A stretch of 64,000 nucleotides of DNA from Spirochaetia bacterium. GTDB lineage: Bacteria; Spirochaetota; Spirochaetia; SZUA-6; Bin103. Each line of letters begins with the position of its first letter. The stretch's first letter is position 1. The DNA is taken from the NCBI GenBank assembly GCA_965198005.1, contig CBDAOI010000004.1, positions 1,984,001 to 2,048,000 on the forward strand, given 5' to 3'. Below the pieces are notes generated by a model, which did no database searches, had not been told where the DNA came from, and worked only from the letters and a program-made list of their open reading frames with translations. The position numbers and the translations under genes were made by a program. Positions 6,337-60,616 of this stretch are shown piece by piece.

Positions 6337-8295
6337 CTAACGACCCATTGCTTCCTTCAGCTCACTATCAATCCAGAGGCGGGCGAGGATGGACATATAT
6401 TGCATATCTCCCATCGAGTATTCACCGTTAAAACCTTCGACCCACGGCTGGCTCACCTGAAACCTTGGTTCCAGAGGACCCCATATCTGATTGTGCTGCT
6501 TTATCACGGCCAAATCAAACTCTCTAGATGCCTGCATCTCCTCCTCAACGGTGGTAGCGGCCAAAAAGGCATCATAGGCGGCGGTCAGCTCAGGGGTCTC
6601 GACTCCGCCCACGTAGTCGCGCGTAGATGGATTGTCCGAGCGATAAGCGCGCGTGGACCAGGCAGGGCTCGAAATGGCCATGCCGCCACCGGTAGATGCC
6701 TGCATCTCCTCCTCAACGGTGGTAGCGGCCAAAAAGGCATCATAGGCGGCGGTCAGCTCAGGGGTCTCGACTCCGCCCACGTAGTCGCGCGTAGATGGAT
6801 TGTCCGAGCGATAAGCGCGCGTGGACCAGGCAGGGCTCGAAATGGCCATGCCGCCACCGGTCATCTCATAATCATGTGCTCCTCTCTTAGCGACCCAAGT
6901 CGCCGTGTCATATATATTAATCGTTACATCAACGCCAATATCAGCAAAGTAGCCGGCAGCTATTTCCACATAGCCCAAATCCGAGATGTCGCGGTGAGAA
7001 TAGTCGACCTTGAATCGAACGCCGTCCGCGCCCCGCGGATATCCAGCCTCGTCAAGGAGCTTCTCAGCACCTTCCGGGTCATACCTGTAGTATTGCTTGA
7101 GCTCTTCGGGCCACTCTTCAACTGGGGTGTAATACCCCTTGACGAAAGACACCGCAGGAGATTCCCACTTTGCTAAACCGGCATAGTAGGTATCGTTAAT
7201 CGTCTCGAGGTCCAGTGCCATCTGCAGTGCGTGGCGTACCCTGATGTCGTCAAAGGGCGCGTTGCGAATGTTCAGACCAATGGCAGCAAACGCCGCCTGG
7301 TGATAAAAGCTCGCCTCGAGTTCGGGGTTGGTCTTCTGGAGGCTCTTTACCACGTCTAGGGATTTTATTTCACCGACGCCGGCTTTAGCTGTTATATCAA
7401 TCTTACCCGAGCGTAGTGCCGATATACGTGTTGCTTCTTCTGCCATATAGAGGGCACTTACCTGGTCAATATAGGGCAGGCGGTTCTCAGGGTATTTTTC
7501 GTCGTAGCCCCAGTAGGCAGGATTCTTGGTCCAGGTGATAGAGACGTCTTCGACATAGTCAGTCAGCTCAAAGGGCCCGGTGCCGACCACGTTCTTCCAA
7601 TCCGTATAGTCGCCGTATTGCTCGATTACCTCGGGGGGTAATATCCAGTGCAAAGCTTCGTTGATGATAACCTCTAGCGCATAGACGGACGGCTCCGTCA
7701 GCTTAAAAACAACCGTATATTTGTCGGTGGCCTCTATCGATTCCCATGGCATATTGACAGCAACTCTAGGACTAAGGGGACGTTCGGTGAAGTCACCCAG
7801 AACGGTATTACGCTGCCAGGTATATACGACATCATCGGCAGTTAGCTCCCGACCGTTCATCGGTGCCTTGTTATGCCAGTAAACCCCCTGGCGGATGTGG
7901 AAGATGTAAGTCAGTGGGTCGGGCGTTTCCCAGCTTTCCGCCAGAGACCCTGTGAAGATAAACGTAGGGACATAGGGGTTTCTAAAGTCAAATTCTTTCC
8001 TATCTAGTCCCCAGTCCCCGAGGGCGAGAGTCTCATTAACACTGGCTATGAGGAAGCCCGCATAGCCGCCAGTAACAAAGGGGTCAGTAGTAGAGTAATC
8101 TAATCTATAGGGAAAGGTTAATGTCCCGCCATACTCTGGTGCCACCACGACCTTGCCGGTGGTCGGGTCGGTCACATACTTCTTGTCAGCCGCGGCTGCC
8201 GGTGCCTCTTCTGCGCCAGCGGCCCACAGGCCGGTTGCGGGCAAAACGAGGACCAACGCAATCGCGAAGGACCTTGCAAAAAATATCTTCATCAT
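6337..8295 (-). CDS. ABC substrate-binding protein family 5, with 56-aa internal duplication
   Basis: Signal peptide; LAESWE, VGTGPF and LLDEAGY motifs; 168-bp perfect repeat 6525-6860. Confidence 0.93.
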   Translation of the reverse strand: MMKIFFARSFAIALVLVLPATGLWAAGAEEAPAAAADKKYVTDPTTGKVVVAPEYGGTLTFPYRLDYSTTDPFVTGGYAGFLIASVNETLALGDWGLDRKEFDFRNPYVPTFIFTGSLAESWETPDPLTYIFHIRQGVYWHNKAPMNGRELTADDVVYTWQRNTVLGDFTERPLSPRVAVNMPWESIEATDKYTVVFKLTEPSVYALEVIINEALHWILPPEVIEQYGDYTDWKNVVGTGPFELTDYVEDVSITWTKNPAYWGYDEKYPENRLPYIDQVSALYMAEEATRISALRSGKIDITAKAGVGEIKSLDVVKSLQKTNPELEASFYHQAAFAAIGLNIRNAPFDDIRVRHALQMALDLETINDTYYAGLAKWESPAVSFVKGYYTPVEEWPEELKQYYRYDPEGAEKLLDEAGYPRGADGVRFKVDYSHRDISDLGYVEIAAGYFADIGVDVTINIYDTATWVAKRGAHDYEMTGGGMAISSPAWSTRAYRSDNPSTRDYVGGVETPELTAAYDAFLAATTVEEEMQASTGGGMAISSPAWSTRAYRSDNPSTRDYVGGVETPELTAAYDAFLAATTVEEEMQASREFDLAVIKQHNQIWGPLEPRFQVSQPWVEGFNGEYSMGDMQYMSILARLWIDSELKEAMGR

Positions 8296-8314
8296 TTCTT
8301 CCTTGGATGTTATT

Positions 8315-8505
8315 TCGGGAGTATTGCGGAGCGGATTGCCGCTCCCTGGCTACTCTGACGCCCGCAACCGCGGGCGCGCCCGCCAACGCGGGCGACCAGT
8401 CTGAGTCAAATTTGTGAAGCGCGCGGCGTGTGACTCACCGGGTTCACCCGGGCTCACGCCGCGCGCGCGTGCGGTTCTTTCAGTATCATTCGAACCTCCT
8501 TCTTC
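8315..8505 (-). promoter_or_regulatory. Conserved SBP leader: SD + uORF MILKEPHARAA* (8454-8489) + two predicted pseudoknots
   Basis: Conserved in three SBP leaders; pairings gcgcgcggcgtg/cacgccgcgcgc, tgagtca/tgactca, ctgg/ccag and gagta/tactc. Confidence 0.75.
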
Positions 8506-11346: not shown

Positions 11347-12327
11347 TCAAGTATTTTCTGTGCGCGATGGCCGCTCTCCGTTTCCTCCACTGGAGTTGCG
11401 TTCTCGCGGATGGTAGAGGCTGTGCACACGCTTCAGATCGCCGATCTCGACACGGAGGTACTTCTGGGTGGTCTTCAGCGAGGCGTGGCCGAGCAGCTTG
11501 GCGATGTACATGACGTTGGCCTCGTTGCGAAGCATGTGCGTGGCGACCGAGTGGCGAAAGGTGTAGCAGGTCAGGTCTTTCTTCAGCCCCACCTCGGCGG
11601 CGATCTTCCACATCACCGAGCGGTTAATGGTGCTCGCGTTGAAGGGGTTGCCCCAACCCGATAGGAACAACAGGCCCGGATCGTCGGCGCGTCCGCGCAG
11701 GAAGTACTTGCGACCCTTGCGCAGATACTCGGCGATGTAATGGCAGGCGTACTGACCGATGGGGACCACACGCGACTTGCCGCCCTTGCCCTTCATGATG
11801 GTGACCGTCTGTTCCTTGAGATCGAGATCTGCAACTCTGAGCTGGCAGAGCTCTGTGGTGCGGATGCCGCAGGCGTACAGCAGCTCGACGATGGCGCGGT
11901 TGCGCAGCCCCTCGGGACCGATCGGCTTGATCTGCTCGAGCAGACCTGAGACCTCATCCTCCGACAACACATTCCGAATCAGCTTCTGCTCCTCCTTGGG
12001 GAACTCCAGCACGCTGGTGGGGTCCCGGAGGATGAAGTCGCCGCGCAGTAGATAATGGAAGAACTTGCGCACCGACCGCAGGATCAGGTTCTGCGTGGCA
12101 TGCGTCAGCGCCCCGATGCGCGGATCCTCATGCTCGGCCAGATGCCGTTGATAGTCGAGGATCGTGTCCTTGGTGACCTGCTCGACCGTGTCGATGCGAG
12201 GGTAGCGCTGCTCCAGGAATGCCAGGAAGCGCTTGGTGTTAGCCCCGTAGGTCTCGAGGGTGCGGGCGGCGAAGTGATGGGCGCGCAGGTAGTCGCGAAA
12301 ACCGTCCAGGTGGCGCTGGAACTTCAT
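11347..12327 (-). CDS. XerC/XerD-type tyrosine recombinase
   Basis: SAM-like N-terminus; LYACGIR, GKGGKSR, YTFRHS (HxxR His replaced by Tyr), LLGH and TTQKY. Confidence 0.92.
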   Translation of the reverse strand: MKFQRHLDGFRDYLRAHHFAARTLETYGANTKRFLAFLEQRYPRIDTVEQVTKDTILDYQRHLAEHEDPRIGALTHATQNLILRSVRKFFHYLLRGDFILRDPTSVLEFPKEEQKLIRNVLSEDEVSGLLEQIKPIGPEGLRNRAIVELLYACGIRTTELCQLRVADLDLKEQTVTIMKGKGGKSRVVPIGQYACHYIAEYLRKGRKYFLRGRADDPGLLFLSGWGNPFNASTINRSVMWKIAAEVGLKKDLTCYTFRHSVATHMLRNEANVMYIAKLLGHASLKTTQKYLRVEIGDLKRVHSLYHPRERNSSGGNGERPSRTENT

Positions 12328-15838: not shown

Positions 15839-16630
15839 GGGGTCGAGAGCGGAGCATCCGCTTCGAGTTGACCGGCAAGGCCACGCCCATGCACAGCCTG
15901 GCGCTCGCCGACCTGCTCGGTCGCCTTCCGGCCCCCCCTCCGGACCAGCGAAGCAACCCACAGCCCCCCGACCTCGTGTCGTGGTCTGTGGGCCGTATGC
16001 CACCCGTGGCGCCAGGGAGGGCGCCACGGGTGGAGGCCACCGATTACGAACTCTGCCGCGGCCGATGAAGCGGCGGCATGACGTGGCAGCGCTACCTCTC
16101 ACGTCACCACCATCCGCGCCGGCACCACCGGCCAACCGTCACTAGCGGTGCGCCCGCGGCATCAGCACAATGGCGATACCTGCGATCCGGCAAAAGGGCC
16201 CATTGGGCGATTCAGAATGCGTCCCAAGGCCCCTTGTTCGCGACCGACCGTGTCTGCCCACGAACGGACGACGCGTCAGTCGTGTGATGAGGCTTCGCCG
16301 AGTCGGTCTGCGGTGCCGCGGTGCCCTGGCGCTGCTTCGGGCTGACCGGCCACGTCACGCCCATAACGAGCGCGGCGCTTGTCGACCTGGTCGGCCGCGT
16401 TCCGGGCGCGCCTCCGGAGTAGGACGCGGATGTTACTACCGAATAGCGAAGGTATTGTAAACAGCCGGTGCAGCTCTGACTCGCGCAGGGGATCGAGAAT
16501 AGCCACCAGGCTCCCAGTCCACGACGTCCTGTCGCGGGCCGGGAGCTGCATGCCACCCGTGGCGCCATGGAGGGTGCCTCGGGTGGAGGTCACGCTGCAT
16601 CAGACGTGATACCGCGGGGGGTGCCGGTCG
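15839..16630 (+). repeat. Mosaic SLOG-flanking repeat
   Basis: Hairpin ~16000-16033; core palindrome 16257-16291; ~100 bp identical (inverted) to 22450-22552. Confidence 0.85.
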
Positions 16631-17745
16631 GCGCTGTTGACAGGGTGGCCGCGCTCGCAAGAGAGTGCACCGTTAGGGGTTCGGCGAATGCAGATGATGC
16701 GCCCCGACGACCGCCAGCGCGGTGGCCGGTGATGTTCGGTGACGTCCGAGTCGTTGACAGGGTGGTCGCCTCCATAGCAAGCTTGCCTCGCCTGGGGTGG
16801 GGTTCGACGGATCGATGATGACGCGCCATGACGACAGTCAGGACAGTGGCCGGTTGGTCGGTGACGTGCGAGTCGTTGACAGGATGGCCGCGTCCATAGC
16901 AACCTTGCCTCGCCTGAGGTGGGGTTCGACGGATCGATGATGACGCGCCATGACGACAGTCAGGACAGTGGCCGGTTGGTCGGTGACGTCCGAGTCGTTG
17001 ACAGGATGGCCGCGTCCATAGCAAGCTTGCCTCGCCTGAGGTGGGGTTCGACGGATCGATGATGAAGCGCCATGATGACGCGCCAGGATGGCGTAAGCGT
17101 AGTGACCGGTGGCCGGTGATGTTCGGTGACGTGCGAGTCGTTGACAGGCTGGTCGCGTCCATAGCAAGCTTGCCTCGCCTCGGCTTCGACGGATCGATGA
17201 TGACGCGCCATGATGACGCGCCAGGATGGCGTAAGCGCAGTGACCGGTTGGCGGTGACGTTCGGTGACCGCCGAGTGGTTGAAAGGGTCGTCGCGCCCAC
17301 GCTATCATGCCTGGCCTGGGGCGACGGATGCCGATGAAGCGCCATGATGACGTGCCAGGATGGCGTTGGCGCAGTGACGGGTTGCCGGTGACCTTCGCTC
17401 ACCCCGGTGACCCCCACGAGTCGTTGACGGCGCGCCGCGCCTATGCTAGCTTGCCTCGCTTGGGGTCCGACGGATGGTCATGAAGCGCCATGATGACGCG
17501 CCAGGATGGCGACAGCGCAGTGACCGGTTGCCGGTGACGCCGCGCGATGAGCGCGTTGGGTCGCTGTTGACACGGATTTGGGCGGCGGCGTACAATCTTC
17601 GGCGAATGGGCACCGACAGCATCCAGCCCAGTCGCCGGCCAGCGGTGACGAAGCGCGATGAGCGGGTTGGGTCGCGCTTGACACGGATTTGGGCCGGCCT
17701 CTACACTCGTCCGCGAATGGGCACCGACAGCATCCAGCCCAGCCG
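16630..17745 (+). repeat. Tandem array of 9 promoter-like units (period 111-145 bp)
   Basis: TTGAC(A/G) or TTGAAA at 16637, 16754, 16876, 16998, 17141, 17279, 17424, 17567 and 17678. Confidence 0.9.
17567..17596 (+). promoter_or_regulatory. Near-consensus sigma70 promoter
   Basis: TTGACA-N18-TACAAT; sister copy TTGACA-N18-TACACT at 17678. Confidence 0.7.
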
Positions 17746-17944
17746 CCGACTACCGACTACCGACTACCGACTACCTAACCGCGCGACAGCCAGCCGCTCG
17801 GCGCCGGTGCTGACCGCGGCACCATCGATCCGCGCGGCACACAGCCGTGCGTGTGGCGGCGGACCGCGTCGGCCGCAACCTCCACCAGTCTACATCAACC
17901 GGCGTTGCCGGGACTTCAGAAGAGAGGGGCACATCTGCGCCCGA

Positions 17945-18118
17945 CCGAGGGGGTGCAAAATGATACTCAAAGAGCCGCACGCGCGCGCGGCGTGAGCCGG
18001 GGTGAACCCGTTGAGTCACACGCCGCGCGCTCTTAGTGAATTTGACTCAGACTGGCCGTCTGCGTTGCGGGCATGAGAGTAGCCAGGGAGCGGCAAGTCG
18101 CTCCGCAATACTCTCGAA
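17945..18118 (+). promoter_or_regulatory. Conserved SBP leader: uORF MILKEPHARAA* (17960-17995) + two predicted pseudoknots
   Basis: Same peptide as 8454-8489 with synonymous changes (ctg/ctc, gaa/gag); same stems. Confidence 0.75.
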
Positions 18119-18139
18119 AATCAAGATCCGGAGTTACGC

Positions 18140-19939
18140 ATGAACTTTGTAAAAATTAGAATGACCTTCGCGTTTGCGTTGGTCCTCGTAATGACCGCAA
18201 CCGGCCTCTGGGCCGCTGGCGCAGAAGAGGCGCCGGCAGCCGCCGCCGACAAGAAGTACGTGACCGACCCCACCACCGGGAAGGTGGTGACCGCGCCAGA
18301 GTACGGCGGGATAATCACCTTTGCCAGGCGGGGTGACCCTCCGCATTGTGACTCCTTTTTCTCGCACGCGCCGGGAGTGGTCACTAGTGGCGTTGCCGAG
18401 AAGCTAGTCCACGGGAACTGGGGAATAGATAGGGACGAACGCGACTTTCGGACTGGCTTCAATCCTCCATCTGCCATGATAGGACAACTGGCTGAAAGCT
18501 GGGAACAACCCAACGACACAACTTATATCTTCAACATCCGCCAGGGCGTTCACTGGCATGATAAGCCCCCGATGAACGGTCGGGAGTTAACTGCCAAGGA
18601 TATAGAATATAACTATCAGCGTTATACTGGTCTAGGCAGCGGCTTCACCGAACCTAGCCCCTATATTGGGGATTTGCTCACCCGTGAGCCATGGGAATCG
18701 ATAACCGCTACCGACAAATGGACGGTTGTTTTTAAGCTGAAGAGGCCATCAGCCACTGCGCTGCATACTATCTTCGATAGCGCGTACAATTTTATATACC
18801 CCCCCGAGGTAATCGAGCAATACGGTGACTTAAAGGATTGTAAGAACCTGGTCGGCACCGGGCCCTTTATGCTAACTGAGTTGGTCGAGGGCAGCTCTGC
18901 GACCTGGATGAAGAATACTGACTACTGGGGCTACGACGAAAAGTACCCAGAGAACCGCCTGCCCTACGTTGACGAGTTAAGGGGCCTGATTATGCCAGAA
19001 GACCCAACACGTCTGGCGGCACTGCGCACGGGTAAGATTGATTACCTAGGTCACCTCGGCACCTCTCAAATATTTACTATCGACGAGGCAGAGAGCCTCC
19101 GGCTGACCAACCCTGAAATCGAACTGCATACGTTTGTCTTGCGGTCAGAAAACTCTTTTGTTGCTGGCATACGCCCCGACAACCCGCCCATTAACGACCT
19201 CAAGGTACGCATAGCAATGCAGAAGGCGTTGGACCTTGAGACAATTAACAATACCTACTTTAGGGGTTGGGCAGACTGGAAACCTATGGGGATTAATGGC
19301 ACTGGTTTAAAGGGGTATCACATCCCATTTGACGAGTGGCCCGAAGAGCTCAAGCGAGAATATACCTATGACCAGGAAGGGGCCGAAGCGCTCCTTGATG
19401 AGGCCGGGTATCCGCGCGGCGCCGACGGCATTAGATTCAAGACCGTCTTGAACCACCTCGATCGGTGGGATTTAGGCTTTAGAGAATTGGTTGCCTCCTA
19501 CTGGGCTGAGATTGGCGTTGATATTGAGATTAGGGAGATGGACGGAACCAAAATTGGCGCTATGATACGCGAACATACTTATGAAGGTATCGCCGATGGA
19601 ACTCCGGGCTACGAGGAGGGACCTCTGAAGCAGGTAGCCTGGTTTACCTCGGACTCATCATGGAACCCCCCTAATGTCAGTGACCCGGTTTATGACGCCA
19701 TGATTGAAGCCGCCGAAGCTGCTACCGGTGAGGAGCAGAAGAGGCTGATTACAGAGGCAGATATGTACGTTATAAAAAACCACTGGTTTATATGGGGTGG
19801 TAGAGCTCCACAGTTTAGCGCGAACCAGCCGTGGCTCATAGGTCATAACGGTGAAATGGCACTAGGAACCATGGACTTTATTGGCCCCTTCGCCCGCTTC
19901 TGGATTGATTCCGAGCTGAAGGAAGCAATGGGTCATTAG
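18140..19939 (+). CDS. ABC substrate-binding protein family 5
   Basis: Signal peptide; LAESWE, VGTGPF and LLDEAGY motifs. Confidence 0.93.
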   Translation: MNFVKIRMTFAFALVLVMTATGLWAAGAEEAPAAAADKKYVTDPTTGKVVTAPEYGGIITFARRGDPPHCDSFFSHAPGVVTSGVAEKLVHGNWGIDRDERDFRTGFNPPSAMIGQLAESWEQPNDTTYIFNIRQGVHWHDKPPMNGRELTAKDIEYNYQRYTGLGSGFTEPSPYIGDLLTREPWESITATDKWTVVFKLKRPSATALHTIFDSAYNFIYPPEVIEQYGDLKDCKNLVGTGPFMLTELVEGSSATWMKNTDYWGYDEKYPENRLPYVDELRGLIMPEDPTRLAALRTGKIDYLGHLGTSQIFTIDEAESLRLTNPEIELHTFVLRSENSFVAGIRPDNPPINDLKVRIAMQKALDLETINNTYFRGWADWKPMGINGTGLKGYHIPFDEWPEELKREYTYDQEGAEALLDEAGYPRGADGIRFKTVLNHLDRWDLGFRELVASYWAEIGVDIEIREMDGTKIGAMIREHTYEGIADGTPGYEEGPLKQVAWFTSDSSWNPPNVSDPVYDAMIEAAEAATGEEQKRLITEADMYVIKNHWFIWGGRAPQFSANQPWLIGHNGEMALGTMDFIGPFARFWIDSELKEAMGH

Positions 19940-20074: not shown

Positions 20075-20412
20075 ATGGTCAAATAGAATCAATCGATCTA
20101 AAATCGGTGGTGCTGGATCCTCGCAATCCTTGAAGAGATCCTAGAGGAATCTCCCACGGCAGCAATAAAGGTGCTATGGGAATCGGAGGATCAATCTTGT
20201 ACTAGCGCTCTTTGGTCATGTACTGTCGGAAGATGGGAAATTGATTGGAAAAGGGATGAAATGATGTACATAATCGAGGGTGAATCGGAACTCGCAGATC
20301 AGTTCGGACACTCTCAAGCATTTGCGGCGGGTGATTTTTCATGTTAGCAGGAGGCTAAGACGATGTGGAATGTAGAACGGCCTCTTCTGAAGATCTTTTA
20401 ATTTTCGCCGAT
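20075..20412 (+). pseudogene. Cupin (DUF861-like) remnant between SBP and permease
   Basis: LWSCTVGRWEIDWKRDEMMYIIEGESEL..GDF then frame break. Confidence 0.5.
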
Positions 20413-20436
20413 GAATCCCGAAAGGTTCTGGCTGCC

Positions 20437-21402
20437 ATGAGAGCCTACGTCATCAGGCGGCTCTTACTACTCCTCCCCACACTGTTTATCATGTCCGTCC
20501 TGGTCTTTCTGTTGGTCCGCTTGATCCCCGGCGATGTAATAGACGCTATGGTGGGTGAAATTGTGTTCTATGGTAGAGGTGATACAGCAGTAGACCGTGA
20601 AGCTCTTGAGCGCATGCTTGGATTAGACGTACCTGGCTACGTGCAGTATGGACGTTGGATAGGAGATATTATTCTGCATGGCACCCTTGGCGACTCACTG
20701 ATTGGCGGTTGGAGAGTGGAGGAGAGGATACTAGGTAGACTGCCGGTAACTATTGAGCTTGGCCTCATGTCGATCGTCATTGGGCTGGTGATAGCACTGC
20801 CGGTCGGCATCTACTCGGCGATTCGCCAGGATACGGCCCCCGATTTCCTGGGGCGCTCCGTCGCCATCATCGGCCTGGCAACGCCGAACTTCTGGCTGGG
20901 GATCATGGTCATGCTATACCCGGCAGTGTGGTGGGGCTGGTCGCCACCGATGGAACTGATTCGGTTCACGGAAGACCCGCTGGGCAGTCTCGGAGTGTTC
21001 ATCATCCCGAGCCTGATTCTGGGTACCTACCTGTCTGCAGCCACCATGCGGATAACGCGGACGATGATGCTAGAGGTGCTGCGGCAGGATTACATCCGGA
21101 CGGCCTGGTCGAAGGGTCTCAAGGAGAGGGTGGTTGTGGTACGGCACGCTGTCAAGAATGCCCTCATCCCGATCGTTACCCTGGTGGGCCTGCAGTTTCC
21201 TATCCTGGTGGGTGGCTCGGTCATCATGGAGAACATATTCAACCTACCGGGGGTGGGTCGTCTCATGGTGGCCGCGCTCACCGACAGAGACTACCCGGTG
21301 GTCTCCGGAGTAAACCTGTTCTTCGGCACGGCGGTCGTGGGGGCCAATCTCATGATCGATCTGGTTTACGGCTACCTGGATCCGCGGGTCCGTTACCAAT
21401 AG
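20437..21402 (+). CDS. ABC transporter permease, DppB/OppB type
   Basis: MRAYVIRRLL; QDYIRTAWSKGL; LDPRVRY. Confidence 0.93.
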   Translation: MRAYVIRRLLLLLPTLFIMSVLVFLLVRLIPGDVIDAMVGEIVFYGRGDTAVDREALERMLGLDVPGYVQYGRWIGDIILHGTLGDSLIGGWRVEERILGRLPVTIELGLMSIVIGLVIALPVGIYSAIRQDTAPDFLGRSVAIIGLATPNFWLGIMVMLYPAVWWGWSPPMELIRFTEDPLGSLGVFIIPSLILGTYLSAATMRITRTMMLEVLRQDYIRTAWSKGLKERVVVVRHAVKNALIPIVTLVGLQFPILVGGSVIMENIFNLPGVGRLMVAALTDRDYPVVSGVNLFFGTAVVGANLMIDLVYGYLDPRVRYQ

Positions 21403-21413
21403 CACGCGCGGGA

Positions 21414-22289
21414 ATGGCTGCTTTCCTTGTCAGGCTGTGGCGAGAGAAATCACTCGGTGCTATCAGCGGGATCATCATCCTGATATTGATTCTCGTGGCT
21501 ATCTTTGCCGATGCTGTGGCCCCGTATGAGTATCTCGAGATACACTTGGCAGACCGGCTGACCGGCTCATCAGCCGCGTATCCGCTGGGTACCGACCACT
21601 TGGGACGAGACCTGTTGAGCCGCATCATCTACGGGGCGCGGCTGTCGTTGATCGTCGGTCTGTCGGCGACTGCAGTGAATGTCGTGGTCGCCGTGCTGAT
21701 CGGCGGCACGTCAGGATTCTTCGGCGGACGACTCGATCTTGTCGTGCAGAGATTCGTCGATGGCTGGATGGCCATCCCGGGACTGCTGCTGTTGTTGACG
21801 ATCATGTCCATCGTAGGGAAGGGGATGCCACAGCTGATACTGGTCCTGGGGATATCAGGAGGCATCGGCGGCTCGAGATTGATCAGAGGCGCCGTGATAG
21901 ACATCAAGGAGAATGCCTATTTCCAGGCGGTCGAGGTGATTGGCGCCTCGAAGTGGCGGACATTCATCGGCCATGTCCTGCCCAACATCATGCCGGTCGT
22001 GATCATCGTCTTCAGCATCAACGTCGGCGGGGTGATCATCAGTGAGGCTTCGCTGAGCTTCCTCGGCTTCGGTCTGCCCCCCGACGTTCCCAGCTGGGGA
22101 GCGATGCTCAGCCGCGAAGGGCGTCAGTACATGCAGCAGGGGCCATGGCTGGCTCTCTGGCCCGGTCTCTGCCTGACGATTGTCGTCTACAGTCTGAACA
22201 TGTTCGGCGACGCGGTGCGTGACCTGCTTGACCCGCGGCTGAGGGGTGGCGGGGGACGCCTGGGAGCCGATGCCGCCAGGTCGGTCTAA
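21414..22289 (+). CDS. ABC transporter permease, DppC/OppC type
   Basis: LGTDHLGRDLLSRIIYGARLSL; GDAVRDLLDPR. Confidence 0.92.
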   Translation: MAAFLVRLWREKSLGAISGIIILILILVAIFADAVAPYEYLEIHLADRLTGSSAAYPLGTDHLGRDLLSRIIYGARLSLIVGLSATAVNVVVAVLIGGTSGFFGGRLDLVVQRFVDGWMAIPGLLLLLTIMSIVGKGMPQLILVLGISGGIGGSRLIRGAVIDIKENAYFQAVEVIGASKWRTFIGHVLPNIMPVVIIVFSINVGGVIISEASLSFLGFGLPPDVPSWGAMLSREGRQYMQQGPWLALWPGLCLTIVVYSLNMFGDAVRDLLDPRLRGGGGRLGADAARSV

Positions 22290-23436: not shown

Positions 23437-25020
23437 GTGGCCGACAGCCTGACCCTCACCAGAGAGAACCAGAAGCTGCGGTCCGAGAACCAGGAGCTAA
23501 CCGTCCAGACCAACGAGCTGACCATCGAGGTTAGACAGCTGGCCATTAAGCTGGAGGTCGTCAACGACGAGCTGGCCAAGATCAAGAGCCGATTCTTCGG
23601 CCGTGCCAGCGAGAAGCTGAGCGTCGAGGAACGGCAGCAGATGCGGCTGTTCGACGAGGCGGAACAGGCCGCCGCCGAGAATCAGGAGCAGCCAGCCCCG
23701 ACCGAGGCGGCCACCGAGGTGCCGACGCACACCCGCCGCAAGCCGGTACGTCGGCCACTGCCGGAGTCACTTCCTCGCGAAGAGGTGGTGGTGGACATCA
23801 GCGACCAGGACAAGCACTGCAAGTGCGGTCACCAGATGGTACGCATCGGCCAGGAGGTCTCCGAGCGCCTCGACGTGATCATGCCGAAGGTGAAGGTGAT
23901 TCGCACGGTGCGGCCCAAATACGCCTGCCATCACTGCGAAGGCTCCGGGGACGAAGATCGACCTGCGGTGCGCATCGCGCCGGTGCCCAAGACGCTGATC
24001 CCGAAGGGCATCGCCACAGCCGGGCTGCTGGCCTTCATCGTCACCGCCAAGTTCTGCGACGCGTTGCCGCTCTACCGGCAGCAGAGTCAGTTTGCCCGCA
24101 TCGATGTGGATCTGCCACGCAGCACCATGGCCGACTGGATGCTGACTACCGCTGTCGCGTGCGAGCCGGTGATGAAAGAGATGCAGCGCAAACTGCGTTC
24201 AGGCCCGGTGCTGCAGGTGGACGAGACCAGGATCCAGGTGATGAAAGAAGAGGACCGAGCCAACACCACCCAGAGTTACATGTGGGTGGCCCGCGGTGGT
24301 CCGCCCGGCGAGCCGGTGCTGATCTATCACTATGCCCCCAGTCGTGGCGCGCCGGTGGCCGAACAGATGATCGGCGACTACGAAGGGTTTGTGCAGACCG
24401 ACGGCTACGAGGCCTACGATCGCAGATGCGCAGGCGATGGCATCGCCCATGTGGGTTGCTGGGCGCACGGCCGGCGCGGGTTCACCGACGCCAAGGAAGC
24501 TGCCACCAAGACCGCCAAGAAGGCGGGCGCCGCCGAGCAGGCGCTGGCGTTCATCGCCAAGCTGTATGGGGTTGAGTCACAACGCGACAGCTATGCCAGC
24601 CTCGATGAGTTCAACCAGGCCAGGCGAGCCCAGGTGGAGCCGATCCTCGAGAAACTGCGGACCTGGCTCCATGCCAAGAGCGACCAGGTTCTGCCTGGTT
24701 CAACGCTCGGCAAGGCGGTCGCCTACATGCTCGGGCAGTGGCCCAAGCTGACCCGCTACCTGGACTCCCCCCACCTCACTCCCGACACCAACGCCGTCGA
24801 GCAAGCCATCCGACCGTTCGTGCTGGGTCGCAAGAACTGGCTGTTCTCCGGCAGCCCACGCGGCGCGGCCGCCAGCGCCACTCTCTACAGCCTCATCGAG
24901 ACCGCCAAGGCCAACCGCCTCGAGCCCTACCACTACCTACGCGAACTCTTCGAGAAGCTGCCGCTGGCCAAGACTCCCGCCGACTACCGAGCTCTCATCC
25001 CCAAACGACGGGTCTACTAA
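23437..25020 (+). CDS. tnpC: IS66 transposase TnpC
   Basis: Coiled coil, Zn ribbon, VDET, QTDGY, CWAHGRR, RKNWLFSGS. Confidence 0.95.
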   Translation: MADSLTLTRENQKLRSENQELTVQTNELTIEVRQLAIKLEVVNDELAKIKSRFFGRASEKLSVEERQQMRLFDEAEQAAAENQEQPAPTEAATEVPTHTRRKPVRRPLPESLPREEVVVDISDQDKHCKCGHQMVRIGQEVSERLDVIMPKVKVIRTVRPKYACHHCEGSGDEDRPAVRIAPVPKTLIPKGIATAGLLAFIVTAKFCDALPLYRQQSQFARIDVDLPRSTMADWMLTTAVACEPVMKEMQRKLRSGPVLQVDETRIQVMKEEDRANTTQSYMWVARGGPPGEPVLIYHYAPSRGAPVAEQMIGDYEGFVQTDGYEAYDRRCAGDGIAHVGCWAHGRRGFTDAKEAATKTAKKAGAAEQALAFIAKLYGVESQRDSYASLDEFNQARRAQVEPILEKLRTWLHAKSDQVLPGSTLGKAVAYMLGQWPKLTRYLDSPHLTPDTNAVEQAIRPFVLGRKNWLFSGSPRGAAASATLYSLIETAKANRLEPYHYLRELFEKLPLAKTPADYRALIPKRRVY

Positions 25021-25519: not shown

Positions 25520-26341
25520 GAGCGCAGCGAGGCTAGCTGCTGAACTTGCGGGTGTAAGTCCCGCCGGCGCAAATCCCAGTGTGGCGCCGTAGTTATATCC
25601 GGCAGTCGACAGGGGCGACTCTGACGGCTGAAAGCCCGGAAGTAAACGTACTCAGGGGAGGGCGTGAGCCCGACCGACCAATGGCCTAGGAGGAGGCTAA
25701 CAACCAGAAGGGCCGTAGCGAGAGCGAACGGACTAATCGCCGAAAACCTCCCCAGCGGGAAGTTGGTTGCTGGATCTCGGAGTGCCAAGGGTTTCCTCCT
25801 CCTACCCGATGGCCAGTGCTGCTGCGGAAGAAACTGGGAAGTGCACGCGGTAGGCTCCCGGCGGAAGTTGAAGGCGGCAATTCTGGATAGTTCAGCAGTG
25901 AAAGCCCGGAAGGTGTGCTGCTCAGGCAGGATGATCCTCGAATGCCAAGGACCGGACCTATAACCGCTGGATGGCGGGAAGTGGAACGGAGAGCAGCAGA
26001 CTGGCGGATGAGGCCACCAAGCGACGATGGCCGCGACAACATAACGCGGCTGGAGCGAGGGCCTCAGGGCTCAGGAGGAGCCAGTGGAAATGCACCGCCC
26101 GGACACTGAGCCGGGGAACGGTGGATACAGCCGTTGGCTCGAAGCGATGGTCAAACCGGGGACAGCGCCCACGTAGCCAAGGATCAGGCTGAGCGTGGTT
26201 GCTATCGTACCGGGAAGGGCCGCCGTGAGCTTGCGGGCACCTGAGCTTCGAGCCGTACTGTGGGAAAACCCGACGTACGGAATCTCAGGGGGGGCGCTGG
26301 AAACGTGGCCTACGGGCGCGCGCGCCAGCGCTCTACCCGAC
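25520..26341 (+). ncRNA. Group II intron lacking an intact intron-encoded protein
   Basis: Domain V GAGCCGTACTGTGGGAAAACCCGACGTACGGAATC; domain VI ending CTCTACCCGAC; tentative 5' end GAGCG; no RT ORF. Confidence 0.75.
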
Positions 26342-26529
26342 GGGGGCGCTTGATCCTGTGGACATTGTGGATAACTTCCCTCACCGGATTGTGCTCCCGC
26401 TTGTGCTCTGCCCTCGGAACCCGCAATTGCGACGTGCTCCCCATGCCCGCTACGCCATCTGCGGTCCGGTCGCCGCGACCCCGCCGCAGGCCGGCGCCGG
26501 CGTCCGACCATCCAGTGCCGAGTGCGGTC

Positions 26530-26820
26530 GTACCTCTGGACTGGAAGGAGAAGTCGAACTCCTCGACGGTGTTCAGGAACGGGAAGCGAGCCTGTCTGAC
26601 CGAGCGCTGGATGCGGGTCTGTTGGCGATGGGAGATCTCCTCGATGATCCGCACGCCGAGGAACGCCCGGCACGACCAGCCATGAATCTCCGCGCGATCG
26701 AGCAACTGCCGCCAGCGGCGGCGGGTGTTGGCCACCGGGTTGAGCCGGCGCAGCAACGGATCGAACTCCACGGTGGCCGGATCGTAGGGCGGCGAGTGCG
26801 AGGTGGCGGTGCTCATCGCC
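26530..26820 (-). pseudogene. IstB-like fragment
   Basis: IEEISHRQQTRIQRSVRQARFPFLNTVEEFDFSFQ. Confidence 0.7.
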
Positions 26821-27067
26821 AAGGCAGCTCCTGAGAAACTACCTGTTTCTGCCATGCCTGCACCGGCCCCGGGCCGGTGGGTAGCTCCTGAGATGGTGCG
26901 GATGCGCGCTCGACAGGCCCCGTGAGCGCCCGCTGCACGCGAATCAGGTAGGTCACGGAGAAAAAATCGTCCATAGCGGCCCTGTGCGGCGTTTTCTGAG
27001 GGGAGGTGGTGTTGCAACACCCCCTGGAAATGCCGGGACAACCGCCGATTCAGGAGAGGCCAGACTC

Positions 27068-27811
27068 TCATCGCACCTCCTCGGCAGCCTGCGGCTTGCG
27101 CAGCGACTCCCCCTGGAGATCGATCCTGACCGAGTGGTGGATCAGGCGATCGCAGATAGCATCGGCGATGGTAGCATCGCCGATGACCTGGAACCAGCTA
27201 GCCACGGGCAGTTGGGAAGCGAACACGGTGGAACGGCGCCCGACCCGATCTTCCAAGACCTCCAGCAGGGTGAGCCGGGCCGGGCCATCAAGGTGCTGGA
27301 GACCAAAATCGTCAAAGACAACCACATCGGTTCTGGCGATTTGGTCGATCTGTTTGAGGTAGCTGCCATCGGCCACCCAGAGCCTGGTCTGCGGGAAGAA
27401 CTTGGTGCAGTTGAAATAGCGGGTCTTGAAGCCGTGCAGACACGCCTGATGGCCGATAGCTGAGCAGAGGAAGCTTTTGCCCACCCCGGTGGGGCCGGTG
27501 ACGATGACGTTGCGGTGCTCCTGCACCCAGCTGCCGTCGGACAGGCGCAGCACCAGATTCTTGTCGAGATTGCGCGCGCGACCAAAGTCGATCTGCTCGA
27601 AGCTGGCCTGATAACGGAACCGGGCGCCCTTCAGCAGCCGCGCCAGCCGGCGGTTGTGGCGCTCATCCCACTCCGCATCGACCAGATGGCCGATCAGTTC
27701 ATCGGCGGTGTACTTGGCGCCGATACCGCCCTCCAGCACCCCGCGGAAGGCACGCTGCATCCCCCACAGCCGCATCTGGGTCAGCTTTTCCTGGGTCGCT
27801 TGGTTGTTCAT
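27068..27811 (-). CDS. istB: IS21 helper ATPase IstB
   Basis: GPTGVGKS Walker A; VVFDDFG; ADAICDRLIH; GESLR. Confidence 0.95.
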   Translation of the reverse strand: MNNQATQEKLTQMRLWGMQRAFRGVLEGGIGAKYTADELIGHLVDAEWDERHNRRLARLLKGARFRYQASFEQIDFGRARNLDKNLVLRLSDGSWVQEHRNVIVTGPTGVGKSFLCSAIGHQACLHGFKTRYFNCTKFFPQTRLWVADGSYLKQIDQIARTDVVVFDDFGLQHLDGPARLTLLEVLEDRVGRRSTVFASQLPVASWFQVIGDATIADAICDRLIHHSVRIDLQGESLRKPQAAEEVR

Positions 27812-29373
27812 CAGCGTTCCTCCTGGAAGTGGTAGTAGTCATTGCCGCGAATATTGGCGTGTAGCGGCAGGGACGGCTGGTTGGCGGACAGCTGCTCGGG
27901 TTCGATCTTGTCCAGACCGTTGGCCAGGATGTTCTTAACTGCCTTATATGAGTGGTAGCGGAACTCCAGCGCCCGACCACAAGCCCGCTCCAGGCGCTCC
28001 TCACCATACTTGCGGTGCAAGTTGATGATGCCCAGGGCCACCTTGAAGCCCTGCTCCGGATGCTCACGCTCGTCCAGCACCTTGCCGACCAGGGCCGCGA
28101 CCTCAGGGCCGATCTCACCCGCCCAGCGCAGGATGCGTTCGGGGCTCCAGTCAGCGTAGAAACGGTGCTGCGGCGGCATATGGTCGGTAACGGTGGTGTA
28201 GCCGCCAGCGGTCCGCGCGCGCTGGTGAGCTGCCACCCGCAGATGGTCGTGATAGATCTCCACCATGCGGTCGTTGTACAGCACCTGTACTCGGGTGCCT
28301 TTGAGCCGCCACGGCACGCTGTAGTAGTGACGGTCCTCGCGGAGCTCGATGTGGTAGTTGAACTGCACCTTCAGATCCAGCGTCTGCATCAGCTCGAAGC
28401 GCTCCGCGGGCAGCGGTTGCAGGGCATCGCGCTCGATCCGATCGAACAGCTCGCGCCGTGAGTAGGGCAGCCGTTGGAAACGCGTGGCGTTGTGCGCATC
28501 GACCAGCGGCCTGATTGCCGCATTCAGCTCATCGATGCTGTAGAAGGTGCGGTCGCGCAGCTTGGCGTACACCCGCTGATACATCAGGCGCACGGTTTGC
28601 TCGACCAGAGCTTTGTCCTTGGGCTTGCGGCTGCGGGCGGGCAGCACCACCATGCCGTAGTGACGGGCGAACGCCGCGTACGCACGGTTCAGATCCGGCT
28701 CATAGGGGTCCGCCTTGGTCACCGCCGACTTCAGGCAGTCCGGTACGATCCCCGCCGGCACCCCACCGATATAGTCCAAGGCGCCCACGCTGGCAGCAAT
28801 CAGGTCTTCCTTCTGCTGCGTCTCGACTGCCTCAAGATAGCCGAGATGACTGGCTCCCAGCACCGCCACGAAGGACTCCACCTCCCGACTGACGGCGCGG
28901 TGCCGCTCGCTGACCGTCAATTTCTTGCCGGCAAAGTCCACAAACAGCTTGTCGCCGACTTTGTGCTCGATATGCATCGTCACCTCGTCGCCGTCACGCC
29001 ACACTTGATAGTGATAACAGAACTGCGAGTAGCTGTACCCGTCCGGCTCCTCCTGACGGTACTCCTCCCAGATCTGCTGGATCGTCACCCCGACCCTCTT
29101 CAATTCTCGTGTACAGCGCTCAAACCAGGCGCCCAACTCACCGTAGCGTGCGTCCGCTGCCCGACCACCGGCAAGCAGCTCCACGAGCTCGCTGTCGCTG
29201 ATTCCCCTGATCTGCTCGTAGCTGAGCCCGGTCGCCGCAAAGTCCCGTGCGTACTGGCTCACTACCGGATGCGATACCCGCAGTGCACGACCGATCTGTC
29301 GATAGCCGAGCCCTTTGTCCCGCAGACGAATAATGTCTCTGATCTTGCGCATGCTGATCCTCTCGTTGGCCAT
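27811..29373 (-). CDS. istA: IS21 transposase IstA
   Basis: HTH N-terminus; LFVDFAG, VPDCLKSAV, KPKDKALVE, HANIRG..YY. Confidence 0.95.
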   Translation of the reverse strand: MANERISMRKIRDIIRLRDKGLGYRQIGRALRVSHPVVSQYARDFAATGLSYEQIRGISDSELVELLAGGRAADARYGELGAWFERCTRELKRVGVTIQQIWEEYRQEEPDGYSYSQFCYHYQVWRDGDEVTMHIEHKVGDKLFVDFAGKKLTVSERHRAVSREVESFVAVLGASHLGYLEAVETQQKEDLIAASVGALDYIGGVPAGIVPDCLKSAVTKADPYEPDLNRAYAAFARHYGMVVLPARSRKPKDKALVEQTVRLMYQRVYAKLRDRTFYSIDELNAAIRPLVDAHNATRFQRLPYSRRELFDRIERDALQPLPAERFELMQTLDLKVQFNYHIELREDRHYYSVPWRLKGTRVQVLYNDRMVEIYHDHLRVAAHQRARTAGGYTTVTDHMPPQHRFYADWSPERILRWAGEIGPEVAALVGKVLDEREHPEQGFKVALGIINLHRKYGEERLERACGRALEFRYHSYKAVKNILANGLDKIEPEQLSANQPSLPLHANIRGNDYYHFQEER

Positions 29374-29599
29374 GGCCTCTCCTTCCCCGCTGCTGCGGGA
29401 ACCAGAAGCCTGCTCGATAAGAGACGCACATGCGCGTCGGTCCATTCCGGTCATCCCTACCACCCATTCCGGTAGCCACCCAAAATTGGAAGGCTTGCCC
29501 CGGAATCGCTGGTAAGGTTGCCCGGATTCGGTGGTAAGGTTCACCGGAATGACTGGTAGGGTTCGCCCGGAATCCACATTCGGACGCGCAGCTCCGCGC

Positions 29600-31280
29600 G
29601 CTGAACGCCGCGTTCCTGCTGGGTCTCGGCGACCCATCGCCGTTGCGGACCGAGGCCCGTAAGCTGCTGCAGCGGGTTGCCAGGGGCAGCGCCTCCTCCT
29701 CCTCGGTGGCGACGGAGGCGACGGAGGCGGCGGTGGCGACCTTCTACCTGGAGTCCCTCGACCGAATCGCCACCGAGATCGCTAGCGCCGCGGCGCCTCA
29801 TCGGGAGCTGCGCGAGCTGGCACACTGGCTGCGGCGGCACCAGCGGGGCGACGAACAGCGGGGCGGCGACCCACGCGGCGACGAGCAGCGGGCAGCGCCG
29901 AGCGTGTGTGGCAGGTGTTCATGCCCGAGGGCGTTGGCATCCAGGACGACCACGATGCGCAGGTGCGACAGCTTCGCGATCGGCGGACCGTGCGGATCAC
30001 GGCCCTCAATCCGTCGCCGTTGCAGCATCCGGCACGGCAGATTCTGTTCACCGCCAACGTGCTGCTCGGCTTGCCAGCCGCGGGCGCCAGCGAGCTGTCT
30101 GAAGACCTGCATGCGCGCGTAGCGAAGGTGGCGAGCGAGCCTCAGCTGTTCTGGTACGACCACCCCATCCCCATCGGCACCCCGCCGAGTAGCAACGAGA
30201 TCCTCTATGGGCTGCGCGCCCTCGACGACGCGCTCGAACAGGAGCGTGTGCGCGGCAATCTGCCTGCGCGGCAGCGAGCCACCTGCGTGCTGTCGGTCTG
30301 CACCACCCACGCCGGGCTGCAGCGGCTGGCAAGTGAGTACGTGAGCGACCTGTTGCGTGCCGCCGGTGGCATGCGCAACCTGGAGGTGTACGTCTTTACC
30401 GAGTCGGACACGTCGCAGCTCATCGAGCAGCTCCTACTGCCGACGGCCGTGGCCGAGAATCCGGATGCCGCCGCCCTGCTGCAGATCTTCGGCGTCGATG
30501 GCCGTTACGCACGCCACTACAACTTCCTGAAGGCGATCGCCGCGATCTGGCAGGTGGTGGTCGATCCCCAGCTTCGCGCCACCTTCAAGATCGATCTCGA
30601 TCAGGTGTTTCCGCAGCCGGAGCTGGTGGAGCAGGCCGGCGGGTCGGCCCTGGAGCTGCTGCGCACGCCGCTGTGGGGCGCGATCGGACGCGATTCGTGG
30701 GATAACGAGGTCGAGCTGGGCATGGTCGCCGGGGCGTTGGTCAATCAGACCGACATCGGCGCCGGGCTGTTCACCCCCGATGTGCGCTATCCGCAGCAGC
30801 CGCCGCCGCTGCTGCCGGACGAGGTGCTGTTTACCAGCAGGGTGCCGCAGGCGTTGTCGACGGCGGCGGAGATGATGGCGCGCTACGACGGGCTACCGGC
30901 GGGCCGGGAGGGGGCGGAGGCGGCGCAGCCACCGCGCCTGGATGGCCGGACCCGGTGCCTGCAACGCATTCACGTCACCGGCGGCACCAACGGCATCCTG
31001 CTAGATGCGCTGCGTCGGCACCGACCCTTCACCCCGTCGTTCGTGGGTCGCGCCGAGGACCAGGCCTACCTCCTGTCGACCTTCGGCGGCGGCCCCCTCG
31101 GTGGCGGCCACCGCAGGCTCGGCTACGCGCACGCCGCCAGCCTGATTGCGTCACGACAAGCACGAGCTGATCCCCGAGGCGATCGAGGCAGCCCGCACCG
31201 GGCGCCTGGTGGGCGACTACGTGCGCATCCTCATCTACTCGGCGTACGCCGACGCCATCGGCGACCGAGCCGAGGTCAAG
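29600..31280 (+). pseudogene. Large conserved-looking hypothetical protein, frameshifted and truncated
   Basis: ORFs 29643, 29906 and 31146 join across frameshifts; FWYDHPIPIG, FKIDLDQVF and GRAEDQAY motifs. Confidence 0.5.
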
Positions 31281-55394: not shown

Positions 55395-55404
55395 AAATGT
55401 ATTC

Positions 55405-55575
55405 TCGAGAGTATTGCGGAGCGGATTGCCGCTCCCTGGCTACTCTCAGGCGCGCAACGCTTGCCGCCAGTTTGAGTCAAATGGCTGAAGCGCGCGGCGT
55501 GTGACTCACCGGGTTTAGCCGGGCTCACGCCGCGCGCGCCCACGGCTCTTTGAGTACCATCTTGACCTCCTTCTT
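55405..55575 (-). promoter_or_regulatory. Conserved SBP leader: SD + uORF MVLKEPWARAA* (55525-55560) + two predicted pseudoknots
   Basis: AAGGAGGT SD; same four stems as the other copies. Confidence 0.75.
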
Positions 55576-60599: not shown

Positions 60600-60616
60600 T
60601 CCTCCGCGGCCGCGAG

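Follow-up and report, generated by a model that had tools for sequence, protein, structure and literature searches.

Why should the gene of a substrate-binding protein (SBP) be preceded by a minute open reading frame (ORF) whose last codons already belong to a stem of folded RNA? This question is raised by positions 17945-18118 of a 64,000-nt stretch (contig CBDAOI010000004.1, positions 1,984,001 to 2,048,000; hereafter, the window) from an uncultured Spirochaetia bacterium. The original prediction, made from the sequence alone, placed here an 11-codon mini-ORF ending in Ala-Ala-stop, followed by two tandem pseudoknots, upstream of every visible SBP start, and all of these features could be located in the focal stretch. 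We find that the stretch is one copy of a 5′ leader of about 190 bases, here named type A, which is a lineage-specific, multi-copy element of Opp/Dpp-type transporter operons. Its elements, all on the plus strand, are arranged as follows.

17948..17953 (+), Shine-Dalgarno sequence of the mini-ORF, AGGGGG; a Shine-Dalgarno-like purine run occurs in 81/81 copies of the genome, GGAGG in most
17960..17995 (+), mini-ORF ATG ATA CTC AAA GAG CCG CAC GCG CGC GCG GCG TGA, encoding MILKEPHARAA and a stop (TGA 17993-17995)
17983..17994 (+), 5′ strand of helix P1, GCGCGCGGCGTG; runs through mini-ORF codons 8-11 up to the second base of the stop, and pairs with 18019-18030
17996..18011 (+), P1a, a variable inner hairpin within the P1 loop; 10 nt are deleted in some copies and 22 nt added in others
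18012..18018 (+), 5′ strand of pseudoknot helix PK1, TGAGTCA; abuts the P1 3′ strand and is complementary to 18043-18049
18019..18030 (+), 3′ strand of P1, CACGCCGCGCGC, the exact complement of GCGCGCGGCGTG
18031..18042 (+), variable linker forming PK1 loop 3; mean majority fraction 0.61
18043..18049 (+), 3′ strand of PK1, TGACTCA, assigned by its complementarity to TGAGTCA
18052..18056 (+), 5′ strand of stem 1 of the second pseudoknot, PK2, CTGGC; pairs with 18082-18086, with 97% of cells paired
18057..18074 (+), P3, a variable hairpin in PK2 loop 1; doubled in the copy at 8313-8501
18075..18081 (+), 5′ strand of PK2 stem 2, GAGAGTA; pairs with 18109-18115
18082..18086 (+), 3′ strand of PK2 stem 1, GCCAG, partner of CTGGC
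18087..18104 (+), P4, a hairpin in PK2 loop 3; absent from the type-B leaders described below
18109..18115 (+), 3′ strand of PK2 stem 2, TACTCTC, partner of GAGAGTA
18116..18139 (+), A/U-rich variable spacer including the SBP Shine-Dalgarno sequence GGAG (18130-18133); mean majority fraction 0.64-0.75
18140..19939 (+), SBP_bac_5 substrate-binding protein gene, 599 aa, at the head of an opp-like operon (Pfam PF00496, E = 1.5e-58)

The genome (4.89 Mb, high-GC, 90% complete, in four contigs designated C1 to C4) was searched with an nhmmer profile built from the three leader copies of the window, which gave 85 matches. Directly downstream of 82 of these 85 lies a paralogue of SBP_bac_5. The downstream proteins share 29-61% identity with the window SBP (the query's own gene, at 100%, aside), and among the BLAST matches listed the leader DNA is 81-94% identical, with two at 100%. 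Profiles of the separate halves gave 81 matches for the 5′ half (mini-ORF, P1 and PK1) and 80 for the 3′ half (PK2); the halves were paired in 76 cases and stood alone in five and three, respectively. Since they are nearly always found together, the leader is a single unit.

The SBP family itself is very large, with at least 151 matches at E ≤ 1e-40 when 150 of the 264 first-look candidates were scored. Counted otherwise, there are 154 high-scoring segment pairs (HSPs) of at least 250 residues, and 127 SBPs with an N-terminus, 70 of which have a type-A leader within 450 nt and 57 of which do not. The expectation of a leader before every visible SBP start thus holds for the window, where three SBP_bac_5 genes have visible starts and each is preceded by a leader; beyond it, about 80 of some 130-150 SBP genes of the genome carry type A.

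The mini-ORF and the RNA behind it

All 81 copies of this genome carry a Shine-Dalgarno sequence and a start codon followed by a stop in frame. The start is ATG in 75, GTG in 3, TTG in 1 and CTG in 2. The stop lies at codon 12 in 65 copies, at codon 7 (TAG) in 14 and at codon 15 in 2, which means that 79 of 81 copies terminate at one of two positions only, codon 7 or codon 12, to give an 11-mer (65 copies) or MILKEP-stop (14 copies), the other two reading 14 codons. At codons 3-6, all variants in the third position are synonymous (CTC 57/CTG 23, AAA 78/AAG 2, GAA 60/GAG 18 and CCG 70/CCT 4/CCC 4/CCA 3), and codons 2-6 together contain 54 synonymous versus 14 non-synonymous variant cells over the 81 copies. 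Codon 7 is the most variable (CAC 59, TAG 14, TAC 5, TGG 1, GAG 1, CGC 1). From related genomes, 38 copies were compared, many of them picked as the most diverged: a synonymous ATT replaces ATA in 5/38, the Pro6-TAG form recurs in 3/38, and one copy (L045) has a 6-nt in-frame deletion that keeps the frame. Because the mini-ORF is intact in 81/81 copies and its variation is mostly synonymous, it is, judged from its codon pattern, translated and constrained as the peptide M-I-L-K-E-P. This agrees with the original view that the SBP genes have a cis-acting leader and that its mini-ORF is truly coding.

The C-terminal part of the peptide has to be read differently. All three copies of the window end in Ala-Ala-stop as described, while 14 of the 81 genomic copies end in MILKEP-stop, and the last residue of the 11-codon copies is sometimes Val, Thr or Gly-Ala. 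Because these 14 copies stop at Pro6-TAG, the Ala-Arg-Ala-Ala tail is a forced reading of the GC-rich stem, dispensable as peptide, and the weight formerly placed on the Ala-Ala end is not borne out. A recoding signal (stop read-through, frameshift or an element like the selenocysteine insertion sequence, SECIS) was also considered and rejected, as P1a is lost in several copies and the 10- and 22-nt insertions or deletions behind the stop are not multiples of three. No conserved longer product extends beyond the stop in the copies compared, and TAG comes earlier in 14/81.

The RNA structure, with both pseudoknots as originally proposed, was tested in two alignments, A3 (MAFFT, 59 sequences) and A4 (model-fitted, 85 distinct sequences). 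The pseudoknot helices lie outside the model used for A4, and their counts are thus unbiased by the fit. Standard pairs occupy 93.4% of cells in both A3 and A4, compared with 31-51% (A3) and 28-56% (A4) when the partner strand is slid. Pairs changed on both sides number 13 in A3, versus 5.1 ± 1.3 in shuffled alignments (0/500 reach 13) and 7 in slid ones; the corresponding values in A4 are 21, 7.7 ± 1.6 (0/500 reach 21) and 7-13. In each alignment, the compensatory pairs thus exceed both controls.

A comparison of the individual helices showed that P1 is almost invariant, with 97.8-97.9% of cells paired and three pairs changed on both sides, in line with the proposal of a strong 12-bp helix that takes in the last codons of the mini-ORF. 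Pairs changed on both sides number four in P1a (A4), two to three in P3 (A3, A4) and four in P4 (A4), and in PK2 of type A stem 2 contains three and stem 1 two (A4). In the PK1 helix TGAGTCA/TGACTCA, the core of 5 bp is nearly invariant, compensatory pairs number only two to three, and the two terminal pairs are weak, remaining unpaired in 34 and 16 of the 85 sequences of A4. Of the two tandem pseudoknots, PK2 is thus, like P1, a predicted element well supported by compensatory changes, while PK1 is a plausible H-type pseudoknot suggested mainly by complementarity. Both proposed knots follow one plan, in which the 5′ strand of stem 1, a loop-1 hairpin and the 5′ strand of stem 2 are followed, with no loop 2, by the 3′ strand of stem 1, loop 3 and the 3′ strand of stem 2. 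The 3′ end of PK2 lies 24-30 nt before the SBP start codon. When the 5′ strand of P1 is masked, the minimum-free-energy fold still contains the TGAGTCA/TGACTCA helix, as a hairpin, with the nested part of PK2 unchanged. The folds also show possible pairing of AUACUC of the mini-ORF with PK2 stem 2, or of the Shine-Dalgarno sequence with TACTCTC, both in sequences without test-worthy variation.

A second set of leaders bears on the same structure. Among the 57 SBP N-termini without type A, 51 share upstream similarity with one another, and these upstream regions are named type-B leaders. They possess a Shine-Dalgarno sequence and a different tiny ORF, ATG-TAG or ATG-(CAG/CGG/GAG)-AAC-TGA, among others, and a type-B profile has 45 matches in the genome (e.g., C2:465296-465372 and C4:1290656-1290732). 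Their pseudoknot has the topology of PK2, with stem 1 swapped as a whole to CCTCGCT/GGCGAGG, stem 2 the same or compensated, and no P4. In the 15 type-B copies with all strands aligned, stem 2 is GAGAGTG/CACTCTC in 8, GAGAGTA/TACTCTC in 4, GAGAGCA/TGCTCTC in 1 and GAGAGTC/CACTCTC in 2; hence pair 7 is A-T in 5, G-C in 8 and C-C in 2, and pair 6 is T-A in 14 and C-G in 1. Since stem 2 covaries independently in type B, PK2 can be regarded as secure. The general plan, as far as the alignments indicate, is a tiny ORF, then a pseudoknot, then the ribosome-binding site. As the tiny ORFs of type B differ, the MILKEP peptide does not seem to be universally required for leader function.

Cassette exchange, window context and taxonomic range

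The focal locus and a locus at C3:894897 are ~100% identical over a stretch that begins ~400 nt before the leader, ends 350 nt after it and includes the signal-peptide codons. This tract of ~750 bp (C4:2001536-2002286 versus C3:894497-895247) connects genes that are otherwise 52-84% identical and encode proteins of 56-58% overall identity, and represents a gene-conversion or recombination tract. Conversion alone is insufficient as an explanation of the conservation because, within one tract, helices and codons are conserved and linkers are variable. The majority fraction reaches 0.96-0.98 in the P1 strands and 0.90-0.98 in the helices and mini-ORF codons 1-6, compared with 0.61 in the loop-3 linker, 0.64 in the spacer to the SBP Shine-Dalgarno sequence and 0.49 in the sequence just upstream; the earlier remark that stems are kept while linkers vary is thus supported.

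The upstream modules, the linkers and the Shine-Dalgarno/signal-peptide regions fall into a few discrete types which occur in mosaic combinations. On a FastTree phylogeny of 119 SBPs (first 60 residues removed, 35 of the 154 HSPs left out as short or N-terminally incomplete, no support values), the leader type (A, B or none) requires 36 changes versus 39-52 (mean 46) in 200 label shuffles. This pattern suggests that 5′ cassettes have been exchanged frequently among SBP paralogues. Several pairs of leader plus gene on different contigs gave identical scores and alignments (C2:7727/C3:799083, C2:13083/C4:693007 and C1:4928/C4:1735505) and may be recent duplications or assembly redundancy.

In the window, two further copies accompany the focal one, both alignable to it over the whole length and with peptides as originally given.

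8313..8501 (-), second window copy; mini-ORF 8454-8489 encoding MILKEPHARAA, doubled P3, 185.5 bits; upstream of the SBP gene 6337-8295
55403..55572 (-), third window copy; mini-ORF 55525-55560 encoding MVLKEPWARAA, 181.8 bits; upstream of the SBP gene 53577-55394

All three genes behind these leaders encode SBP_bac_5 proteins and head opp-like operons; measured against the first, the other two proteins reach no more than 54% and 48% identity. The window ends within a fourth SBP gene, whose leader lies just outside (match at C4:2048627). The permease genes of the focal operon occupy 20365-21402 and 20928-22289. Upstream of the focal leader, a tandem-repeat array with periods of 111-138 nt extends over 16693-17748. 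Its units consist of TTGACA followed by a -10-like hexamer, with sigma-70 consensus scores of 11/12 at 17567-17596 and 10/12 at 17678-17707, and look like stacked promoter-like modules; the long ORFs over the array (16590-17417, minus strand; 17474-17995, plus strand) have no Pfam match. Between the transporter operons lie genes of mobile elements, namely an IS66 transposase (23437-25020), IstB-like ATPases (26310-27811), a Mu-type transposase (27811-29637), a DDE_Tnp_1 transposase (56305-57477) and a tyrosine recombinase (11347-12327), and among such elements a group II intron domain (RF02003, 25546-25723, 51.1 bits). Two FG-GAP/ASPIC (UnbV) repeat proteins, at 49890-52313 and 58881-60818 on the minus strand, adjoin the permease genes of two opp-like operons, and the former, as listed, overlaps the permease ORF 51578-52546.

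The range of the leader was assessed with a covariance model of 172 positions and 36 nested pairs, with at most 116 candidates scored per genome. The model gave 85 matches in this genome and 62, 43, 35, 33, 5, 1 and 1 in seven congeners; the five highest of these counts are far too large for chance. No match came from three other congeners, two of them single-contig genomes, from 13 sister-genus genomes or, under stricter filters, from 81 genomes representing 26 further genera of the order. BLAST detected the leader in seven of ten further congeneric species; 30 genomes from outside the genus gave no match. When public genome contigs were scanned with a strict pattern, 51 stretches were returned, all in metagenome-assembled genomes, whose titles mostly read Spirochaetia, with one Spirochaetaceae, one 'bacterium' and one 'Tectimicrobiota'; the same scan of metagenome contigs returned 3 contigs. 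The stretch is also present in RNA libraries labelled sponge metagenome. The number of leaders follows the number of SBPs, as one congener has 28 SBPs and 5 leaders (G007), two others have 5 and 3 SBPs and no leader (G009 and G010), and a genome of the sister genus has one SBP (G011). In the genomes covered, these searches thus confine the leader to some species of a single genus, whose members are uncultured and high in GC.

Comparison with known regulatory leaders

At the gathering threshold, Rfam 15 matched nothing in the whole window except the group II intron domain mentioned above, and a permissive scan of 17850-18200 returned only FsrA, whose 11.2 bits (E = 8.3) fall short of its gathering score of 80. 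The suspicion that this is not a known RNA family is thus upheld, and a full-text literature search found no paper describing the leader or the SBP expansion. The leader is an uncatalogued, lineage-restricted family that would fall under a known kind of cis-regulation, that by a leader ORF plus structured RNA.

The layout had been likened to transfer-messenger RNA (tmRNA), with which the leader shares a short reading frame ending in alanines and pseudoknots nearby. In contrast to tmRNA, it has no tRNA-like domain, possesses its own Shine-Dalgarno sequence and start codon and is a cis-acting mRNA leader, and the genome has a separate tmRNA gene. ARAGORN predicts 0 tmRNA genes in the window, and RF00023 does not match at the locus, so that the analogy does not hold. 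Six matches of RF00023 occur in the genome; one is over the cut-off (C4:1961081-1961428, 134.7 bits) and five score 18-32 bits, all outside the window. ARAGORN returned nothing at C4:1961081-1961428, the genome's own tmRNA locus.

A translated leader ORF, as in amino-acid attenuators of the trp/his type, is present in 81/81 copies. Such an attenuator was nevertheless rejected, since the ten codons after Met specify eight different residues with Ala (three times) as the only repeat, which is untranslated in 14/81, and since most copies lack a U-tract terminator and no competing antiterminator was found in the masked fold. The tnaC-tnaA leader of Escherichia coli combines an arrest peptide with Rho-dependent termination. 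The type-A leader resembles it in its short ORF, constrained at the amino-acid level for MILKEP, in the Pro before the stop in a subset (proline in the P site with the stop in the A site in the 14/81 Pro6-TAG copies, while 65 copies read on to codon 11), in the encoded Rho, and in a C-rich, G-poor tract in the leader region. It differs in that this tract lies upstream of the mini-ORF, a GC-rich pseudoknot stands behind the stop, the peptide has 6-11 residues instead of 24, and about 80 operons are concerned instead of one.

In the ermC, cat and pyrBI leaders, as would be the case here, one strand of a helix further downstream is occupied by the ribosome while a short leader ORF is being translated. 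Unlike in these systems, there is no antibiotic-resistance context, the helix leaves the downstream Shine-Dalgarno sequence free, a U-tract is mostly missing, and the helix is stem 1 of a probable pseudoknot. By analogy, the leader would work most like the erm/cat, pyrBI and tna leader-peptide systems, yet it fails defining features of each. Operators of phage T4 gene 32 and E. coli rpsO likewise place an H-type pseudoknot just 5′ of the ribosome-binding site; here, no cognate autoregulatory protein is seen, the genes encode periplasmic binding proteins, and PK2 ends 24-30 nt before the start codon and excludes the Shine-Dalgarno sequence. Structured 5′ RNA and a translated upstream ORF also act together in mgtA/mgtL and, as is reported, in the atypical B12 riboswitches of Mycobacterium tuberculosis (PMC11260477), which share with our case a long leader in a high-GC bacterium. 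In contrast to these, the type-A leader has no known aptamer, no candidate ligand and a massive copy number in one genome.

A proposed ribosome sensor and its alternatives

We propose that the leader is a ribosome-occupancy sensor, gating either premature termination or decay of the transcript or the presentation of the ribosome-binding site, and assign this reading a probability of roughly 45%; the pausing of the ribosome, the switch and its output are inferred from the layout described above. A translating ribosome would end or pause at the mini-ORF stop (Pro6-TAG or Ala11-TGA), both stops being set against the P1 barrier. In toeprinting, the 3′ boundary of the ribosome lies about +15 nt from the P-site codon, which leaves ~12-13 nt shielded beyond a stop codon in the A site. 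Because of this boundary, both stop positions would put the ribosome over P1: at TGA codon 12 it would shield the whole 5′ strand, and at TAG codon 7 it would shield 9/12 bases. P1, and hence PK1, would be unable to form as long as the ribosome sits at the end of the mini-ORF. The presence or absence of the ribosome would then set the fate of the transcript, most likely by shielding the long 5′ untranslated region with its C-rich tract from Rho-type termination or decay, and may in addition govern the presentation of the downstream ribosome-binding site by PK2. With ~80 paralogues sharing the leader, the sensed signal would have to be global, e.g., translational or nutritional status, and not the substrate of any single transporter.

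Several observations are in line with this proposal. A C-rich, G-poor window of 60 nt (C minus G ≥ 0.25) is present upstream of the mini-ORF in 81% of the 81 copies, compared with 19% of random 300-nt windows. The tract lies ~150-200 nt upstream of the mini-ORF, C-runs of at least 8 (8-28) occur in 15/81 copies, and Rho is encoded in the genome (698 bits). At the focal locus, the heptamer CCGACTA is repeated 4.3 times at 17746-17775, within the C-rich, G-poor tract. With regard to decay, RNase Y was found in the genome, while RNase J and RNase E/G were not found at its 90% completeness; for the same reason, a block of a 5′ exonuclease in the manner of an exonuclease-resistant RNA was rejected. 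The unique junctions 17818-17981 and 18086-18192 are spanned by Logan contigs that stem from the RNA libraries of three studies, a hint consistent with co-transcription of leader and gene.

Other observations weigh against a ribosome-sensing switch. These contigs are silent on starts, ends and strand and may include DNA. Among the relatives' copies, 3/38 lack a canonical start and 8/38 have other ORF lengths (9-48 codons). The copies are related, so the cell counts overstate independent events, and the conservation stems in part from gene conversion, which means that high identity alone proves little. The tiny ORFs of type B are quite different, with ATG-TAG among them. No alternative pair of terminator and antiterminator was found, and no competing helix appeared in the masked fold. 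At least 5 T in the 8 nt behind P1 occur in 13/76 copies, and at most 2 T in 41/76. The RNA behind the mini-ORF stop is G-rich and structured, with a median maximum C minus G of 0.10; with the C-rich tract on the 5′ side of the mini-ORF, a ribosome engaged with that ORF could stop Rho only as a roadblock. Finally, the region of the SBP Shine-Dalgarno sequence varies, and neither fold visibly sequesters it. Two specific outputs were rejected on these grounds: P1 as a general intrinsic terminator, as the U-tract is missing in most copies and a terminator scan flags nothing on the plus strand of the leader, and a tna-style Rho-utilization site right behind the stop, in view of the low C minus G there and the upstream position of the C-rich tract.

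The free SBP Shine-Dalgarno sequence in both predicted folds fits better with the main rival explanation, a constitutive expression cassette, which we consider a serious competitor although clearly less probable than a sensor. Here, nothing would be switched; the leader would stabilize the 5′ end of the mRNA, maintain the coupling of ribosomes and RNA polymerase and shield the A/U-rich ribosome-binding site of the SBP gene against variable sequence upstream, thereby giving uniformly high SBP output. It would be the natural counterpart of synthetic bicistronic designs. The transfer of the promoter region, the leader and the signal-peptide codons from one paralogue to another as a single block, the almost random distribution of leader types on the SBP tree (36 changes versus 39-52 after shuffling), the tandem promoter-like repeats upstream of the focal copy and the different type-B tiny ORFs before the same kind of pseudoknot all speak for such a cassette. 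However, the amino-acid constraint on MILKEP and the two precise stops against P1 exceed what generic ribosome loading needs, and with RNase J and RNase E/G not found in the 90%-complete genome, the usual targets of a 5′ stabilizer are not evident; RNase Y is present.

Conserved unpaired nucleotides (CGCAA 0.91, the GA joint 0.86 and the P4 loop GCAA) point in another direction, to a ligand- or protein-binding RNA, in which one or both pseudoknots would serve as an aptamer or as the operator of a global RNA-binding repressor and the mini-ORF as the expression platform. Two compact H-type pseudoknots with a zero-length loop 2, and the position of PK2 beside the ribosome-binding site, which known pseudoknot operators share, would suit this role. 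We nonetheless judge it unlikely, because there is no Rfam match and no candidate ligand or protein was found, and because type B keeps PK2 without P4 and with changed loop sequences, so that a fixed binding pocket is not evident. Moreover, with the family restricted to part of one genus, the copies have diverged too little for an aptamer core to be told apart from shared ancestry.

Less probable still is a metabolite-sensing arrest peptide of the TnaC/SpeFL kind, in which nascent MILKEP together with a small molecule would block release or elongation at codon 7. Its appeal lies in the amino-acid-level conservation through Pro6 and in the stop that follows Pro6 in 14/81 copies here and 3/38 of the relatives' copies. 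Proline directly before a stop, the native Glu-Pro ending included, is known to impede termination. A C-terminal proline motif of this sort, the Pro-Pro of YbeL-PP, is described in a published report (PMC3834316). Against this stand the five further sense codons after Pro6 in 65/81 copies, the variability of codon 7 (His, Tyr, Trp, Glu, Arg or stop), a peptide of six residues that would be barely inside the exit tunnel, the ORFs of 1-3 codons in type B, and a gene context of 80 different SBPs under one leader that points to no ligand. That the leader has no function of its own and is non-coding DNA whose likeness is due solely to gene conversion between paralogues of recent amplification is very improbable, since the ~750-bp tract and the narrow taxonomic range, which would agree with it, are outweighed by the fine-scale conservation inside the tract (0.90-0.98 versus 0.49-0.64), the 54 versus 14 variant cells of the mini-ORF, the compensatory pairs beyond both controls, the whole-helix swap that keeps the topology in type B, and a design kept in five species with many copies each.

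Beyond a ribosome-occupancy sensor as such, the leader might represent a new ribosome-sensing class, in which MILKEP and a stop against a pseudoknot form a pause module gating more than 80 operons, and in which the swapping of type-A and type-B cassettes reassigns sets of uptake systems to other inputs without protein change; as a whole, we hold this extension to be doubtful. If the sensing mechanism is true, one cis-element would govern the largest gene family of the genome (about 130-150 SBPs in 4.9 Mb, ~80 of them with the leader) through a compact natural design, with the stop of a mini-ORF built into a pseudoknot. The system offers a test case for how a symbiont-type bacterium coordinates a huge uptake arsenal, for how regulatory cassettes are homogenized and reshuffled among paralogues, and for whether very short nascent peptides plus an RNA barrier can act as a pause signal. 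Even as a constitutive cassette, the leader would constitute an uncatalogued structured RNA family with a well-supported pseudoknot topology.

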